A stretch of 64,000 bases of DNA. Source: Candidatus Levyibacteriota bacterium (GTDB taxonomy: Bacteria > Patescibacteriota > Microgenomatia > Levybacterales > UBA12049). The notes under the pieces are model-generated. The model was not told the origin of the DNA, did no database searches, and worked only from the letters and a program-made list of their open reading frames with translations. Shown here piece by piece: positions 1-59,417 of the stretch. The stretch spans positions 123,878 through 187,877 of the forward strand of contig CAVRKE010000002.1 of assembly GCA_963722305.1 (NCBI GenBank), in the 5' to 3' direction. The translations under genes and the position numbers were made by a program. Position 1 is the first letter of the stretch. Each line of letters opens with the position of its first letter.

Positions 1-1171
1 TTGAAATATTTGAGTCTCTAATTGAAGTCCAAGCTCTGGAAAAACCCAGCTCGATGGCTGTTTGATGGGATTTTCCTTGCCTTAATTCTTCTTTCATTCT
101 TTCGAAGATTAAAATGTTGGCGTCAACTGCCATGCCGATGGAAAGAATAAATCCGGCAATTCCGGAAAGGGTCAGCGTTATTCCGTAGGGCGTAATCGAA
201 CTTAATTTGAAAATGCTTAAAACAAACAAAGTGTACAAAGTTAAAGCCAAACTGGCAATTAATCCCAATTTCTTGTAGAGAGACGTCATAAAAACAACGA
301 TTATAACAAAACCGAGTATGCCTGCAAAAAGGCTTTTTGCAAGCGAGGAACTGCCTAAAGTTGGCTCAATAACACTACTCGATAATATGCTTAAAGGGAC
401 CGGTAAGGCACCGGCATTTAGTTCCGTACTTAATTGAGTGGCTTGATCCAGAGTAAAATTTCCTTCAATCACAGCATTACCACCAACTATTGCTTGATTT
501 ACTCTGGGTGTACTGATAATTTGGTTGTCTAAAGCAATTGCCAAGATTTTTCCAACTAGCCTTTGTGTAATATCGGCAAATTTCTTAGAACCCGCAGAAT
601 TAAAAACAAGTTGCACTTCCGGCTTGCCGGTATTTTGACTAAAAGCAACACTTGTTTGCTGTAAATCCGAACCGGTTAAATTCGTTTTTCGATAATCTGC
701 CGGGTTAAATGTTGCCGAATTAGTACCAACTTGTTCCCAAAAAGTTAACTGGGCAGTTGTCCCGATTAAGTTTCTGATTTGGTTGACATCCGTGACCCCG
801 GGAATCTCAACGATGATTCTGTAATCGTTATTGTTTGTCACTGATGTTTGGACCAGCGGTTCGGAAACACCGAATAAATTTACCCTGTTTTCAATTACGG
901 TTTGTGCGGAACTTAACGCAGCTGTTCTTTGAGCTTGAGCAATACTGGACATATTTGCCTTAAGTATTAAACTCGTTCCGCCCTTTAAATCCAATCCTTC
1001 TCTAAAAGTTAACGTTTGATTTATTTTTAAAGCGGCAAAAATAGAATTCGGATCAAAATTATAAGTTTTGTCGGCAAAATGAATATTGGAAATCTTTGGC
1101 AAGTTAATAAAAACCGCCACAACAGTTAAACCAATAATTAACCACAAAAGATACCGTGGACTTTTTCTCAT
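1..1171 (-). CDS. secD: Protein translocase subunit SecD (3' end runs off the window edge)
   Basis: Translation of the minus strand from the ATG at 1171 gives MRKSPRYLLWLIIG...VSEPLVQ...AGILGF...AVDANILIFERMKEE. These are SecD hallmarks. Not in the ORF track because it is partial. Confidence 0.85.
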   Translation of the reverse strand, partial: MRKSPRYLLWLIIGLTVVAVFINLPKISNIHFADKTYNFDPNSIFAALKINQTLTFREGLDLKGGTSLILKANMSSIAQAQRTAALSSAQTVIENRVNLFGVSEPLVQTSVTNNNDYRIIVEIPGVTDVNQIRNLIGTTAQLTFWEQVGTNSATFNPADYRKTNLTGSDLQQTSVAFSQNTGKPEVQLVFNSAGSKKFADITQRLVGKILAIALDNQIISTPRVNQAIVGGNAVIEGNFTLDQATQLSTELNAGALPVPLSILSSSVIEPTLGSSSLAKSLFAGILGFVIIVVFMTSLYKKLGLIASLALTLYTLFVLSIFKLSSITPYGITLTLSGIAGFILSIGMAVDANILIFERMKEELRQGKSHQTAIELGFSRAWTSIRDSNIS

Positions 1172-1189
1172 AGATTCGATTTACTCACT

Positions 1190-1218
1190 ATGACACTGAG
1201 AAAAGTCGAACGTGTCAT
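1190..1218 (-). promoter_or_regulatory. Conserved intercistronic hairpin E1 (stem ATGACAC/GTGTCAT, loop TGAGAAAAGTCGAAC) between the regulator stop codon and the secD ATG
   Basis: Perfect 7-bp inverted repeat. The TGA stop of the upstream ORF lies inside the stem. The whole 1172-1218 spacer is about 85% identical to the ftsE-ftsX spacer. Confidence 0.6.
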
Positions 1219-18924: not shown

Positions 18925-19791
18925 CTATTTAAGATATCTTAGAACCGCTAAAAAGCTTGAGACAATACCCAAAAATACCGCAAATAAAACTTCCAGGCCA
19001 AGCAATAACAGAAGCGAAAAGTAAGAAACCGGCAAAACCGGAATTCCTTTTAAGAATGACTCCAAAAACGGCGAGGCATACAATAGTCCGGCAGTGGCAA
19101 TTAGCCAACCGATGACCGAACCAACAACCCCATAAAAGACTCCCTCATATATAAACGGCCAGCGGATATACCAATTTGTTGCTCCAATCAGTTTCATGAT
19201 TTCGATATCTTCTTTTTTCTGGGAAATTTTTACTCCGATTATTGTTACCATAATAAAGATGGAAACCAAAGACAAAAGGACAATTAAAACTATGCCAATT
19301 TTTCTTATCGCACCTGTCCATGCGCTTAGGGTGGAAACAACGTCTTTTTGGTAAACAACATCCGACACTAGCGGTGACTTTGTGAGCATATTGGAGATAT
19401 TTCCTAAATCTTCTATCTTAATCGTGGAGATTTCAAATGACGAAGGTAAAACGTCGGCGGTAACCAAATCCAAAAGCAGCGGGTCATTCTTATTTTGTTC
19501 TCTGTAAATTTTGAGGGCATCCTCTTTTGAAACAAATTTAATTGAGGCAACCTTACCGGTTGCTTTTAACTGATTTCCTAAAGCATCAATGTCCGCCTGT
19601 TTTGCCTCGTTTTTGAAAAAGGCTGTCACCTGAGGTTTTGACTCAAAATAATTGATTATTGTTGACGATCCGGCCAAAAGGAAGACAAAAAAGGATACTG
19701 CCAAAAAAGTTAAAGTCATGATTAGAATTGCCGCCAACGCCTGATACGGCGACCTTCGAATATTTTTCCAGGCAGTTTTAGTAATGTTCAT
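18925..19791 (-). CDS. ftsX: Cell division protein FtsX
   Basis: Four-TM permease-like topology with a large periplasmic loop. Confidence 0.85.
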   Translation of the reverse strand: MNITKTAWKNIRRSPYQALAAILIMTLTFLAVSFFVFLLAGSSTIINYFESKPQVTAFFKNEAKQADIDALGNQLKATGKVASIKFVSKEDALKIYREQNKNDPLLLDLVTADVLPSSFEISTIKIEDLGNISNMLTKSPLVSDVVYQKDVVSTLSAWTGAIRKIGIVLIVLLSLVSIFIMVTIIGVKISQKKEDIEIMKLIGATNWYIRWPFIYEGVFYGVVGSVIGWLIATAGLLYASPFLESFLKGIPVLPVSYFSLLLLLGLEVLFAVFLGIVSSFLAVLRYLK

Positions 19792-19808
19792 AGATTCGAT
19801 TCCTCACT

Positions 19809-19837
19809 ATGACCTTGAGCAATGTCGAACAGGTCAT
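19809..19837 (-). promoter_or_regulatory. Conserved intercistronic hairpin E2 (stem ATGACCT/AGGTCAT, loop TGAGCAATGTCGAAC) between ftsE and ftsX
   Basis: Same loop as E1, with two compensatory base-pair changes in the stem. The ftsE TGA lies in the stem. The spacer 19792-19837 is near-identical to 1172-1218. Confidence 0.6.
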
Positions 19838-37782: not shown

Positions 37783-39283
37783 TAAATCTTTTTTTCACAA
37801 ACTCCTTATCCAACGATAAAATTAACCAAGCCGCTTTTGGTCCGTGATCTTTACCGATTAAAGAAAGATAAATTGCCGCAAAAGACTGTTTTCCATTCAA
37901 TTTCAATTCTTTTCCGATGTCATAAATTCTGGTCTGAAATTCTTCACCGTTCCATTGCTTGTCTAATTCTTCGCTCAATTGTTTTAAGAATACTTTTTGC
38001 TCTTTAGATAAATTCTGAACTTGAGCCGGTAACTGTTTCTGAATTATGAATTTGTCTTCTTCCGGAGCAAATTGGTCCACCCAAACTCTGGCATATTTTG
38101 CCCATTCTTCAAGTCCTTCTTTTTTAATTTCCTCTTCCATGTTGGGCATCTGTATCCACTGGGATAAAACGGAAAATCTGATTTGTGGAGGTTTTTTAAT
38201 TTCGCTAACTTTGGACAGTTCAAACGCTCTAACTAAATCCTCATCGCCTTTATTGAAAAATGCATCGGCCGCTTTTTGGTAATCATCAAAAAGGCTTGGG
38301 ATCGCAGTTCTTTCTTGCGGATCAAAGTTGCTTTGTGATTTGAAACCGTTTCTGGCAAAAAGAAAACGGGCAACCTCGGGAGGCAATATTTTTACCAAAT
38401 CGTGGGCTTTTAGCCCCAAACCTTTTGATGAAGACATTTTTTTGCCGCCGATTAAAATAAATTCATAAGGTAACCTAAAGGGTTTTGGATAATCAAATAC
38501 TTCTTCACAAAGAGCCATGGCAATATCGTAAGAACCGCCGGCCGAAGCATGGTCTTTTCCCGCCCCTTCGATTGTGATGCCGATTACTTTCCAGTGCGCC
38601 GCCCAATCCACTTTCCAGGGAAGTTTGCCGGTTCCGCCAAAAGGAGTTATTCGGCCTTCATAGCCACAACCCTTAGCCCATTTCACGAGATTTGGTTCAC
38701 ATTTATAAGAAACCTCTTTACCGTCCCAGGCAAAAACTTTGGTTGTTCCAAGCTTGCCGCATTTTTCACAAATAATCTGCAAGGGTAACCAACCGGATGC
38801 TTTTTTTTGACTACCACTAATTGTTTGATAAATATCCTGAATTCTTTCGGCATTATCTAAAGCTTCTTTAATTACTCCATCAAATTTTCCTTGATGATAA
38901 AGTTCCCATGAAGAAAGGATTTTTGCTTCCACCCCTAAACTTCTTATTGAGTTAACAAAATCACCGGCAAAATAATCTGCCAAGTTTGAATATTCGGGAA
39001 CAGGAGATGGAACTTGCTTAAGAGACATACCCATATATTGCCTGAAATCTTCTTTTAATTCCGGAGAGAGTTCGTCCATAGCATCAAAATCATTAATCAC
39101 GAAAGTGAATTTCGGATTTTGACCCGCATCTCGAAGTGCTCTGAAGATCATGCTGTGGATTACCGGCCCCATTAATGAACCGACATGAGAAAAACCGGAG
39201 GGGGTTTTCATGTCGTCAACCCAGTAGGGTTTATGTTTGCCAGAAGCAATGATGTCGCTTGCAACTTTATCCGCCCAAAACAT
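37766..39283 (-). CDS. lysK: Lysyl-tRNA synthetase, class I (archaeal type)
   Basis: HVGS (HIGH-type) and KMSSSKG (KMSKS-type) motifs. Length about 505 aa. Confidence 0.8.
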   Translation of the reverse strand: MFWADKVASDIIASGKHKPYWVDDMKTPSGFSHVGSLMGPVIHSMIFRALRDAGQNPKFTFVINDFDAMDELSPELKEDFRQYMGMSLKQVPSPVPEYSNLADYFAGDFVNSIRSLGVEAKILSSWELYHQGKFDGVIKEALDNAERIQDIYQTISGSQKKASGWLPLQIICEKCGKLGTTKVFAWDGKEVSYKCEPNLVKWAKGCGYEGRITPFGGTGKLPWKVDWAAHWKVIGITIEGAGKDHASAGGSYDIAMALCEEVFDYPKPFRLPYEFILIGGKKMSSSKGLGLKAHDLVKILPPEVARFLFARNGFKSQSNFDPQERTAIPSLFDDYQKAADAFFNKGDEDLVRAFELSKVSEIKKPPQIRFSVLSQWIQMPNMEEEIKKEGLEEWAKYARVWVDQFAPEEDKFIIQKQLPAQVQNLSKEQKVFLKQLSEELDKQWNGEEFQTRIYDIGKELKLNGKQSFAAIYLSLIGKDHGPKAAWLILSLDKEFVKKRFNETSI

Positions 39284-39329
39284 AACCCTATTCTACTACA
39301 AATTAGTAATATAAGAAATAAAATTCTTT

Positions 39330-39581
39330 TTAACTTTGAACTCTTTCTCCCAGTTCGTTTATCCAGGGCACGAGTCGACGTGCTCTATCCGAAGTTCCTG
39401 GGTTAACTTCGTCCGCTTGAACAACTCTCGGTCTAACTATAATTTGTTCTGTTACTGAAGTTCTAAAAGAAATACCTGCTAGGTCTACTTTTCGCGATGA
39501 AGAAAAGCTATGTCTTCCACCATCCGGTTGACTTCCTTCCTGAGCTACTTCTTCTGGTGTCCTACCTGCTAATCTATCCAT
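39330..39581 (-). CDS. Hypothetical 83-aa protein (no recognised family)
   Basis: AGGAGGTGA SD 6 nt upstream of the ATG, preceded by hairpin E3. Confidence 0.45.
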   Translation of the reverse strand: MDRLAGRTPEEVAQEGSQPDGGRHSFSSSRKVDLAGISFRTSVTEQIIVRPRVVQADEVNPGTSDRARRLVPWINELGERVQS

Positions 39582-39600
39582 AATATTTCACCTCCTGACT

Positions 39601-39628
39601 TTAGTGGTGAGCATTGTCGAACCACTAA
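39601..39628 (-). promoter_or_regulatory. Hairpin E3 (stem TTAGTGG/CCACTAA, loop TGAGCATTGTCGAA)
   Basis: The loop matches the E1/E2 loops with a different perfect stem. On the sense strand it is followed by AGGAGGTGA and the ATG of the 83-aa ORF. Confidence 0.55.
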
Positions 39629-39760
39629 AAAACCCTTCCGTTTAGGGATATCTTTTCCGGTAATTGTTAATTACAAAAAGATTCCCTCAGAAGGGCTGCT
39701 TTTTTGCTAACTTTTCTAAATTTAATTTTTCAAAACTTGACATAATTATAAACACATTTA

Positions 39761-40156
39761 TTAAGCAGCAGCTGATTCAACACTTGACGGAAATAATCTC
39801 TGTAAAATTCCTTGAGGAAGTGATCTTCTGAGAAATGCTTCTTTGTCAACTCCACCAGAATAAGAACTTTCTAAAACGATCGCATGAGCGCCACAGTCCA
39901 AAATCCTTGCTGAGGCTGCTTCCACCCATGATTGATTTTCTCTAGCAGAGTCAAAATCGTTCGGATCCACCATACCCAACACTCTTCTGTCAGGACCGAC
40001 AAGCCACATTCTATTTGGAATATTACTACTTACCTGATGAGAAAGAACAGCTTCCAATTCACCAGGTTCAAGAAGCGCTAATGGTACGCCTACAGCTGCT
40101 TTTGCTCTTCCAGTAGGATTTGGTTCCATAAATTTTGCTTCAACTATATTTCCCAT
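39761..40156 (-). CDS. Hypothetical 131-aa protein (no recognised family)
   Basis: Driven by a perfect consensus promoter ending 8 nt from the ATG. No family recognised. Confidence 0.5.
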   Translation of the reverse strand: MGNIVEAKFMEPNPTGRAKAAVGVPLALLEPGELEAVLSHQVSSNIPNRMWLVGPDRRVLGMVDPNDFDSARENQSWVEAASARILDCGAHAIVLESSYSGGVDKEAFLRRSLPQGILQRLFPSSVESAAA

Positions 40157-40164
40157 ATTTGAAC

Positions 40165-40192
40165 ATTATAATGGCTAATTTGCATATGTCAA
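40165..40192 (-). promoter_or_regulatory. Consensus sigma70 promoter TTGACA-N16-TATAAT, 8 nt from the ATG (leaderless)
   Basis: On the minus strand: TTGACAtatgcaaattagccatTATAATgttcaaatATG. Confidence 0.6.
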
Positions 40193-40206
40193 CTTTTAAA
40201 CAATAT

Positions 40207-40235
40207 TTGACAAAAATTCATTTGACTGTTACACT
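40207..40235 (+). promoter_or_regulatory. Divergent promoter TTGACA-N17-TACACT abutting the ATG at 40242
   Basis: TTGACAaaaattcatttgactgtTACACTtgtcacATG. Confidence 0.45.
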
Positions 40236-40241
40236 TGTCAC

Positions 40242-40895
40242 ATGATAAGCACGACTTCCGTGGTTGAAAACTTAGTCAAAGCCTCTCCTCTTTTGGAGGA
40301 CGGACTTGCCAGAGGAATCATCAATTATTCCGCCTTGGCTAAAGATTTACGTCCTCAAATTGAAGAAAAACTCTTAAAAAAGGTTGGGCGGAGCGCCATT
40401 GTTATGGCTCTTAAACGAACCAGTAGTAAATTGAAAACAAAAAGAAAAGTTACTCAACAAATAATCAACCTAAGTGGGATAACTGCGCGCTCCAATTTGG
40501 CAGAGCTTACTTATCTTAACTCCGATACAATTATCGAAAAACACAAGAAAGTATTTTTCACTTCCGAAAAAAGAAAAGATATTTTTTGTAATTTAACCCA
40601 AGGCGTTAGAGAGACAATGCTGATAGTCGGAGAAGAAATCCTTACACCGATGGAAAAGCTTTTTGCAGATGAGAGACTGGTTGCAAAAATCAAAAATTTA
40701 TCATCAATCACTATCTTGCTGACAAAAGAAACTGTCAACACACCGGGCGTATATTATTCTATTTTAAAACTGTTGGCATGGAACGAAATTAACATTATCG
40801 ATGTTATCTCCACTTATTCCGAATTAACAATTATTCTCTCCAACAACGATATCGACAGAGCCTTTTCTCTTTTGAAGAACTACAAAAACAATTAA
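40242..40895 (+). CDS. ACT-domain-like regulatory protein (hypothetical)
   Basis: Two beta-alpha-beta-beta-alpha-beta-like segments. Weak assignment. Confidence 0.35.
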   Translation: MISTTSVVENLVKASPLLEDGLARGIINYSALAKDLRPQIEEKLLKKVGRSAIVMALKRTSSKLKTKRKVTQQIINLSGITARSNLAELTYLNSDTIIEKHKKVFFTSEKRKDIFCNLTQGVRETMLIVGEEILTPMEKLFADERLVAKIKNLSSITILLTKETVNTPGVYYSILKLLAWNEINIIDVISTYSELTIILSNNDIDRAFSLLKNYKNN

Positions 40896-48694: not shown

Positions 48695-49218
48695 TGCGAC
48701 ACTTTGAAAAAGTTAGTCCCCGCGTGGGAAATAGAATTGTTAATATTCAAGAAGCGGCAAAAATCAGCCGCAGACTAAAAAAGGAAGGAAAAACTGTGGT
48801 TCTTACCGGAGGTTGTTTCGATATTCTTCACTTAGGCCACCTCAAATTCTTAGAGGCGGCAAAAAAAGGCGGTGACATCTTGTTTGTCTTTGTGGAAAGC
48901 GATGAAAACGTCCGCAGAGTTAAAGGCGAGAACCGGCCAATCAATACCCAGGATGAAAGAATCGGTTTACTGGCAGCAATCCGTTTCGTCGACTATGTAA
49001 TAAAATTGCCTCTTATGCACGACAACAACGACTACGACAAATTGACAAAAATGGTACAACCGTCAATTATTGCCGTCACCAAGGGAAGCGAGGTTATAAA
49101 ACATGCCCGAAGACAGGCAGAAAAAATCGGTTGCGAAGTTATCGAAGTAGTTGGCAGAATTCCCGACCGTTCTACCTCAAAAATTGCCGGGATTATCTCC
49201 GCAGAAAATAAATTATGA
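48694..49218 (+). CDS. Cytidylyltransferase-family protein (RfaE domain II / HldE C-terminus-like heptose-1-P adenylyltransferase)
   Basis: VVLTGGCFDILHLGHLKFL motif. Confidence 0.6.
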   Translation: MRHFEKVSPRVGNRIVNIQEAAKISRRLKKEGKTVVLTGGCFDILHLGHLKFLEAAKKGGDILFVFVESDENVRRVKGENRPINTQDERIGLLAAIRFVDYVIKLPLMHDNNDYDKLTKMVQPSIIAVTKGSEVIKHARRQAEKIGCEVIEVVGRIPDRSTSKIAGIISAENKL

Positions 49219-49247
49219 CCCAAGGAAATAGCGAATGAATTGAACCT

Positions 49248-49691
49248 ATGAAGATTACCTATTTTTTATTAGTAGCATTTATCATCCTCGTTGTTGTCCT
49301 TTTGAAAATCGATTATTTCAGTCCCCAACCACCAACCGCCGAAATCAATGGGCATGTATTTTCTCTATATCTTGCCAAAACGGAGTCTGAACAGGAAGTG
49401 GGACTAGCGAAATTTGATAGAATCGCCAATCATCAAGGTATGCTTTTCATTTTCCAAAAGCCCGATTACTATTCTTTTTGGATGAAAAACATGAAATTTC
49501 CAATTGATATTATTTTTATTAATAACGATAGAGTAGTCGACATTTTTCAGAATGTTCCCGTACAGAAAGACACTAATAATCTTCCGACCTACACCACCGG
49601 CGAAAAAGCCGATAAGGTACTGGAAATAAATGCCGGCTTGGCAAAGCAATACAGCATCAAGATCGGTACGGAAGTGGGGATTAATTTGTGA
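49248..49691 (+). CDS. DUF192 domain protein
   Basis: GMLFIF...FWMKNMKFPIDIIFI. Confidence 0.65.
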   Translation: MKITYFLLVAFIILVVVLLKIDYFSPQPPTAEINGHVFSLYLAKTESEQEVGLAKFDRIANHQGMLFIFQKPDYYSFWMKNMKFPIDIIFINNDRVVDIFQNVPVQKDTNNLPTYTTGEKADKVLEINAGLAKQYSIKIGTEVGINL

Positions 49692-59210: not shown

Positions 59211-59417
59211 CTCAATTCACCTCGCTTTCCTAACAAATAGTCGAACTAATAACTAGTGGCTAATTGCTAATGGCTGATTATTAATTAGCTTAACAATACA
59301 ATGTAAATGAGAAGTTGTCAAGGGGCGAACAATTACTATTTCGCCCTGCGATCCTGAGCGAAATGAAGTCCTCCAAGGACTGAGTGGAGTCGAACGGGTC
59401 AAGCACCTTTTAATTAT

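Follow-up and report, generated by a model that had tools for sequence, protein, structure and literature searches.

Probable origin of a hairpin upstream of lysS in a Levybacteria-like genome as a lineage-specific insertion belonging to a ~44-bp mobile palindromic repeat family of Patescibacteria

The lysS region

The window, by which we mean the whole 64-kb stretch of DNA that was analysed, encodes on its minus strand an ORF of 83 amino acids (39330..39581) upstream of a gene for class-I lysyl-tRNA synthetase (lysS). A word-indexed search with this ORF returned only its match to itself; an exhaustive search returned homologues of 77 and 73 amino acids (E-values of 2e-5 and 7e-4, both weak). 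These two small homologues are syntenic, both being encoded immediately before class-I lysS with the gene order conserved, so the ORF is not a complete orphan. A small-ORF family of 73-83 amino acids is common to the window, L113 and L114. The genomes L120, L122 and L123, with LysRS proteins 81-85% identical to that of the window, have unrelated ORFs of 68-96 amino acids behind the same GG(A/T)GGTGAAATATTATG.

Immediately 5' of a hairpin designated E3 lies a putative attenuator (39627..39743, minus strand) composed of an 18-codon leader ORF (39743-39687) with an AAA AAG pair of lysine codons, a long hairpin and a run of six U. This leader is conserved upstream of the small ORF in the window, L113 (~810-915), L114 (~1025-1113), L120, L122 and L123, with leader ORFs of 15-18 codons that contain two to five lysine codons and always place KK 3-4 codons before the stop (in the window, MSSFEKLNLEKLAKKQPF and then the stop). 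The leader hairpin with its six U has a folding energy of -30 kcal/mol (z -5.8) and an alternative inner 2:3 pairing; an RNAalifold alignment of the leader regions from all six sources placed the two clades out of register, and covariation could not be read from it. To judge from its sequence, the leader looks like a Lys-codon leader-peptide transcription attenuator adjoining the class-I lysyl-tRNA synthetase. lysS itself has an extended -10 box (TGTAGAATAG; 39284-39310, minus strand), conserved in all relatives, that ends 6 nt before the ATG, so a leaderless lysS mRNA is probably made as well, independently of the upstream attenuator.

The E3 hairpin

The E3 hairpin (39600..39629, minus strand) is real and consists of a 5' arm UUUAGUGG (39629-39622), a 14-nt loop UUCGACAAUGCUCA (39621-39608) and a 3' arm CCACUAAA (39607-39600); the plus strand accordingly reads TTTAGTGG (39600-39607), TGAGCATTGTCGAA (39608-39621) and CCACTAAA (39622-39629). 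The arms are 100% complementary over 8 bp, and the first and last bases of the loop extend them to a 9-nt inverted repeat, within which lies the perfect 7-bp stem (39601-39607/39622-39628) that a sequence-only reading of the window had described. That reading had also placed the ATG of the 83-aa ORF after the hairpin, and rightly so: on the sense strand E3 is followed by AGUC, the Shine-Dalgarno sequence (SD) AGGAGGUGA (39596-39588) and the AUG (39581-39579) of the 83-aa ORF, so that the minus strand from 39632 to 39579 reads UUUUUUAGUGG-UUCGACAAUGCUCA-CCACUAAAGUC-AGGAGGUGA-AAUAUU-AUG. Alone, the hairpin has a folding energy of -9.4 kcal/mol.

The E3 loop keeps a consensus found elsewhere in the window and, as had been noticed, differs by one base (13 of 14 positions identical) from the loop TGAGCAATGTCGAA (19816-19829) of a second hairpin, E2. 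The exact loop motif TGAGNNNNGTCGAA occurs four times in the window, in a single orientation, compared with 0.03 expected from 100 shuffles; with this ~130-fold excess, the motif is not due to chance. The excess disappears when one mismatch is allowed (7 observed, 3.3 expected). E3 is also recovered over its full length by a covariance model of 17 further members of the family (18.2 bits, E-value 0.006), a score to which host sequence near the start codon contributes; the 3' side of E3 that is aligned with the 3' half of the canonical element is largely host sequence and hence not countable as homology.

No match to Rfam 15 was obtained at the gathering score in the window and 14 loci, and searches of E1, E3 and the Bacteroidota elements (see below) at an E-value threshold gave just weak matches to miRNA-type hairpins, nothing meaningful. 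ARAGORN predicts no tRNA in the window. A terminator scan of 39200-40300 lists none at E3, which is followed by AAAGUCAGG and not by a U-run. A tRNA-like or T-loop origin was considered on account of GTTCGACTCCGCTCA, which by eye is the 3' part of an apparent tRNA T-arm in L045, but was rejected: the window has no tRNA and the arms do not fit a T-arm. A promoter, an integron attC site and an IHF site were considered too, but on inspection none of them suits the consensus.

A family of palindromic elements

Three further copies of the loop motif lie on the minus strand of the window. E1 (1168..1218) occupies the junction of a wHTH gene and secD and consists of ATGA, 44 bp (CACGTTCGACTTTTCTCAGTGTCATAGTGAGTAAATCGAATCT) and a second ATGA, such that the TGA on the left is the stop codon of the wHTH gene and the ATG on the right is the start codon of secD. 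E2 (19788..19837) is a full element at the ftsE/ftsX junction, with the stem ATGACCT/AGGTCAT and a length one base short of the common form. Both fit ATGA-CNN-G-TTCGAC-N4-CTCA-NNG-TCAT-AG-TGAG-N1-3-AATCGAA-TCT-ATGA, in which a 44-bp quasi-palindrome lies between two copies of ATGA. Its two modules have complementary 14-nt loops (TTCGAC-N4-CTCA and TGAG-N3-4-ATCGAA), and on the opposite strand the second half forms a mirror hairpin, TCATAG-TTCGAT..CTCA-CTATGA; the unit is therefore a pair of inverted hairpin modules with complementary loops.

E4 (59347..59402) is a decayed copy in the rny-hup spacer in which the loop and the 5' arm TTGACCC survive; between the loop and GATCGCAG lie 26 nt bounded by CTCAG...CTCAG. 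The sequence GTTCGACNCCACTCAGGATCGCAG is common to E4, where the CTCAG-bounded segment interrupts it, and to a site that precedes gyrB in a different Levybacteria MAG (L077:4613-4640), and the sites that bear it may constitute a second subfamily. On the plus strand, ATAGCGAATGAATTGAACCTATGAAG (49213-49253), ahead of the start of a DUF192 gene, resembles the 3' half of the element (18.1 bits) and has no first hairpin; whether as a remnant or by chance, either is possible.

Pattern scans, first of one genome per species and then of metagenomes, detected the element both in Levybacteria and in other Patescibacteria; 17 distinct canonical copies remained once duplicates had been removed. All 17 have the conserved stem (A)TGACNC/GNGTCAT, which includes the stop/start tetranucleotide ATGA. 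Compensatory changes occur at four positions of the stem (AC/GT, CC/GG, CT/AG, TGATCC/GGATCA, TGGCCC/GGGCCA), along with one G.U pair; judged from the aligned copies, they show that pairing in the family stem matters, and a DNA hairpin would explain this covariation equally well. The proposal that E3 exemplifies a conserved loop on free stems thus stands in part: the loop is common to E1, E2, E3, E4 and copies in other Patescibacteria, and the stem of E3 is indeed unrelated to theirs, but free stems are not the rule among canonical copies and, as described below, the 5' arm of E3 is not inserted DNA. One copy, in L110, has ATGG on both sides in place of ATGA. A degenerate copy is found at L056:4286, and another family member (L093:486-540), with the stem GAGCAG/CTGCTT, lies antisense within the coding sequence of rtcB (RNA ligase) and leaves the rtcB frame without an in-frame stop.

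At every locus inspected there is one unit and no tandem array. The genes 3' of the copies are unrelated (secD, ftsX, mltG, rplU, an MGMT-like gene, ftsL-like, and genes for a cyclase, a Zn-ADH, an epimerase and a glycosyltransferase), so the comparison of downstream genes that had been suggested as a check yields no common function. The elements are dispersed, some copies are decayed, and the elements are not tied to a gene function. Approximately 5 kb added from the window's own genome (short Logan contigs) contained no further copy, and a scan of viral contigs gave nine matches, all without stems and judged to be due to chance.

Occupied and empty sites

The wHTH/secD junctions of the nearest relatives were fetched through homologues of the wHTH protein. 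In three sister genomes (L115/L116, L117/L118 and L119) the junction, ...atgctttcATGAgaaaaa..., is a bare 4-nt ATGA overlap of stop and start with no element; the window has the same flanks plus 44 bases and a second ATGA. It is the pattern expected where an insertion has duplicated a 4-bp target, or where an element enters 3' of ATGA and itself ends in ATGA. The SecD N-termini of L115-L119 are visibly closer to that of the window than are those of more distant genomes (39-56% identity) that do have the element at this junction, a distribution that suggests either repeated insertion or precise excision in the sister lineage. Between genomes the element is 94-96% identical and the flanking coding DNA 60-75%, which recent copies of a constrained master fit better than does an old orthologous spacer. 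At the uppP/MGMT-like junction, L056, L095 and L099 have the element and the window has an empty site. Four copies, including the decayed E4, are present in the 64-kb window, versus none in 109 kb from the closest relatives. The relatives compared amount to a few hundred kilobases of related genomes, and comparison with the close ones at the E1, E3 and uppP/MGMT-like sites shows the elements to be insertions. Active mobilisation is probable; a Pfam scan of 24 window proteins detected no transposase or recombinase, and no Y1 transposase among them.

For E3, the lysS regions of the closest relatives were chosen by LysRS identity (L120, 85%; L122, 83%; L123, 81%). All three have in common with the window the short leader ORF, the long hairpin with its U-tract, and GG(A/T)GGTGAAATATTATG; E3 is absent from them, and from L113 and L114. 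L120 and L122 read GGGTTTTTTAGTGG(G/A)AAGGTGGTGAAATATTATG and the window reads GGGTTTTTTAGTGG-TTCGACAATGCTCACCACTAAAGTC-AGGAGGTGAAATATTATG: where relatives without E3 have TTTTTTAGTGG(G/A)AAGGTGG, the window has ~25 extra bases. Because the arrangement of leader, SD and lysS is otherwise the same, E3 is an insertion of ~25 nt in the lineage of the window (39597..39621, minus strand, the right boundary being accurate to 2-3 nt), made up of the loop of the family, 8 nt that are the reverse complement of the left flank, and AGTC. This flank, TTTTTTAGTGG (39622..39632, minus strand), is host sequence made up of the upstream terminator U-tract and AGTGG; it is present in L120 and L122, takes the form TTTTTTAGTG in L123, and its last 8 nt are the 5' arm of E3. 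The SD AGGAGGUGA and the AUG (39579..39596, minus strand) are likewise host sequence, conserved in relatives that lack E3.

E3 therefore represents the first module only, and has no left ATG, second module or 16-codon ORF of the kind described below. Its 5' arm (TTTAGTGG) was in place before the insertion, and the inserted 3' arm is the exact 8-nt reverse complement of it (chance ~1.5e-5, 4^-8). E1-type copies have ATGA on both sides; E3 has no direct repeat and instead has an inverted copy of its flank. A stem of which half is host sequence is not explained by ordinary transposition and, at the level of sequence, hints at target pairing. L123 has a different insertion of 78 nt (CCTGCCCGCC...TGAGCCGTGTTCGAATAG...GGCGGGGAAAC; ~2620-2700) at exactly the position of E3, between the terminator U-tract and the SD, which indicates that this position tolerates insertions.

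Start codons and a 16-codon ORF

The host ATG lies 40 nt after the G of GTTCGAC in 13 of the 17 copies, a distance that is kept through compensating 1-nt shifts of ATCGAA. Since the element and the duplication together measure 48 nt, the left ATG opens an ORF of 16 codons with a stop that overlaps the real start codon; in 12 of the 16 copies listed, this ORF ends exactly at the TGA of the right ATGA. The left ATG overlaps an upstream TGA in E1, E2, L043, L047, L056 and L084, and in L098 and L084 a -10 box precedes it by 6 nt, the same spacing as in the apparently leaderless genes of the window genome. The encoded mini-peptide, MTRST.L..IVS.., varies freely at codon 6; conservation is at the nucleotide level.

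Most genes of the window lack a Shine-Dalgarno sequence, and in many a TATAAT-like box precedes the ATG by 6-8 nt, which suggests that leaderless translation may be widespread in this Levybacteria-like genome; a perfect TTGACA-16-TATAAT (40165-40192, minus strand) lies ahead of a 131-aa ORF at 40156. The overlap of the 16-codon relay ORF with the host start codon would probably keep translational coupling intact and make the insertion tolerable, and the relay ORF itself is presumably translated. We infer that insertions at ATGA start codons survive by way of the relay ORF, which maintains delivery of ribosomes, and that insertions elsewhere are removed by selection.

Interpretation of E3 and its relatives

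E3 is most likely a lineage-specific insertion from a ~44-bp mobile palindromic repeat family of Patescibacteria and not a regulator of the small gene; on balance, the family is probably a tolerated mobile repeat and E3 a dead half copy without a dedicated role. According to this interpretation, a small, non-autonomous palindromic repeat would have spread in Levybacteria and other Patescibacteria, entering at an ATGA start codon that is often also the stop codon of the preceding gene, or at the first codon of a leaderless transcript. E3 would be a solo, truncated copy, of which the first module was inserted into the 5' UTR in the window's lineage, between the terminator U-tract and the SD of the small ORF, so that its stem would consist of host sequence paired with the inserted complement of that sequence. 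The conserved loop would be the probable recognition feature for a mobilising enzyme; should a protein read this loop, such an enzyme, working on the hairpin as DNA, is a likelier candidate than a regulator of translation. Points against mobility are that the 24 window proteins scanned include no transposase or recombinase, the lack of a direct-repeat duplication at E3 and the flank-mirroring 3' arm, which ordinary cut-and-paste insertion does not predict. The repeated ATGA, being also a start and stop codon, could have been kept for its function rather than made by transposition, and the very high conservation of the element could instead reflect selection on a host function.

One alternative grants the mobile origin but holds that the host now keeps the element as a translational relay, with the 16-codon mini-ORF bringing ribosomes to internal or leaderless genes that lack an SD. 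In an SD-poor genome where many genes start 6-8 nt after a -10 box, this fits the preservation of the 48-nt length by compensating indels, the 12 of 16 copies that end at the overlapping TGA, and a left ATG that is always usable as a start, through stop overlap or leaderless initiation. It is nevertheless unlikely: the empty ATGA overlap already couples the two genes, so a relay restores function and adds none; the frame rule is broken in 4 of 17 copies; the freedom of codon 6 locates conservation in the nucleotides; and E3, which has neither left ATG nor relay ORF, is left unexplained.

A second alternative is that the elements are cis-regulatory RNA hairpins, in which a protein or the ribosome reads the loop in the mRNA and controls the translation or stability of the next gene. 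The placement of every copy on the sense strand with constant spacing to a start codon, a stem that covaries and has one G.U pair that fits the sense strand only, and conservation far above that of neighbouring coding DNA are what such a regulator would be expected to display; moreover, the start codon is part of the second hairpin, TCATAG/CTATGA, which vies with the first (hairpin A) for TCAT, so that a switch can be drawn. We consider it improbable, because orthologous junctions in the closest relatives have a plain ATGA overlap and no element, the downstream genes are functionally unrelated, decayed copies lie in spacers and one copy lies antisense within a coding sequence, and no Rfam family matches. 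E3 in particular lacks the second half and any convincing pairing to its own SD. Its absence from the closest relatives with the same leader, SD, start codon and lysS means that the regulatory reading does not hold there; a functional tie of the hairpin to the small ORF is not supported, and the genes downstream of other copies are unrelated. A pseudoknot or SD-sequestering riboswitch was also rejected: the loop of E1 and E2 complements the downstream UGAG..UCGAA, but by geometric reasoning the linker is too short for both hairpin A and a CUCA/UGAG helix, E3 has no partner sequence, and the empty sites argue against a required function.

A third possibility addresses the half-host stem directly. 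The inner segment of the element is complementary to the DNA at its left (TCAT with ATGA, CCAT with ATGG in L110, CCACTAAA with TTTAGTGG in E3), but L112 combines CCAT with ATGA. Such complementarity resembles the pairing of guide and target in IS200/IS605 elements. The inner hairpin arm might thus be a guide that pairs with DNA left of the insertion, the free stem of E3 the product of a retargeted insertion by a hairpin-recognising single-stranded-DNA enzyme (IS200/IS605-like or new), and the loop its handle; on our analysis this extension of the mobile-repeat interpretation is improbable. It is scarcely credible that E3 formed by chance or belongs to the intrinsic terminator upstream of it. 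Its 5' arm does overlap the three final U of the U-tract, and the 81-nt region is of ordinary stability (z 0.22), but this origin is refuted by the loop shared with E2, the over-represented motif, the position of the hairpin after the U-tract rather than before it and without U following, and the 8-nt flank complement that relatives lack.

Implications

A regulatory-looking pattern, with a hairpin always just before a start codon, can arise without regulation from the choice of target (ATGA) and selection against harmful insertions. The mobile-repeat interpretation would add a very small repeat to the streamlined genomes of Patescibacteria, in which mobile DNA is thought to be scarce, and would provide a second, independent example of the strategy by which MIRUs hide behind a coupled mini-ORF. 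At junctions of this kind annotators may choose the left ATG or the right one as the start codon; at the filled site L133 the right ATG is called. The half-host stem of E3 could point to guide-directed insertion and, if that reading is true, to a mobile element of CPR bacteria that is minimal, directed by a guide and reprogrammable in nature.

Comparison with known systems

A literature search found no paper on such elements in Patescibacteria. The same combination of loop motif and layout occurs in a Bacteroidota repeat found in L004-L089 (Prolixibacteraceae, Draconibacterium, Mariniphaga and related MAGs), with the core CACAG-TTCGACTNCGCTCA-CTGTGACAG-TCAGRC-TGAGCGNAGTCGAA-GTCTGA and no Rfam match; in some copies an extra hairpin (CCCTGTCTGCCGACAGGCAGGG) splits GTC|GAA. 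The 58-bp core of Prolixibacteraceae and Draconibacterium, CACAG-TTCGACTNCGCTCA-CTGTG-ACAG-TCAGRC-TGAGCGNAGTCGAA-GTCTGA, resembles the Patescibacteria element in having two inverted hairpins with complementary loops, followed by AGTCAG. It differs in being located in spacers of any gene orientation and not at start codons, apparently (by eye) within longer inverted flanks of the form GGNGGAATTAA. The resemblance could be due to either homology or convergence. In soil metagenome sequences with PhoH-like and GroEL-like neighbours (L094:1925-2012 and L106), three TTCGAY-N4-CTCA / TGAG-N4-GTCGAA motifs, each with a short stem of its own sequence, lie in one spacer after a PDZ-protease-like gene, and this cluster implies that the loop motif may occur in repeats of further phyla.

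PATEs derived from IS200/IS605, and the REP/RAYT system, are as commonly described similar to the element in several respects: hairpins are recognised, the left tetranucleotide complements an internal segment (ATGA/TCAT; in E3, TTTAGTGG/CCACTAAA), and one orientation is kept throughout. The empty sites also match what precise excision in the manner of IS200/IS605 would leave, which does not imply that they originated by excision. On the other hand, the two hairpins of the element are inverted and not direct copies, no GTAG box adjoins any copy, as it would in REP/RAYT, and the window proteins scanned include no Y1 transposase. The guide-target contacts of IS608 are short and non-canonical and form no stem.

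Bacterial MITEs and small palindromic repeats (Correia/NEMIS, RUP, ERIC and Rickettsia palindromic elements; PMC2229807) are likewise non-autonomous, palindromic, dispersed and polymorphic for presence or absence. They also share with the element a short target duplication, apparent in its E1-type copies, and occasional in-frame insertion into coding sequences, the rtcB copy in L093 resembling the Rickettsia elements in this regard. The element differs in its length of 44 bp, compared with the usual 100-200 bp, and in an apparent duplication of ATGA rather than TA (PMC2229807). It differs further in that its termini are less conserved than its interior, its two halves are inverted copies of each other, and no parent IS was seen.

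The 16-codon ORF of the element, which overlaps the flanking stop and start codons in 12 of 16 copies and is missing from E3, makes MIRUs a close parallel. To our knowledge, MIRUs have not been described as quasi-palindromes with two hairpins, unlike the present element. According to PMC12548453 (citing Supply et al. 1997), the ORF within a MIRU shares 4 nt with the stop and start codons on either side, so that coupling is kept. The same source describes MIRUs as short repeats (~40-100 bp) that insert at start codons in or before operons, ahead of unrelated genes, as the element does; their sequence and phylum are unrelated to it, and they often form tandem arrays (VNTRs), whereas the element occurs as single units (PMC12548453). 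By these comparisons the element is a MITE/MIRU-like repeat.
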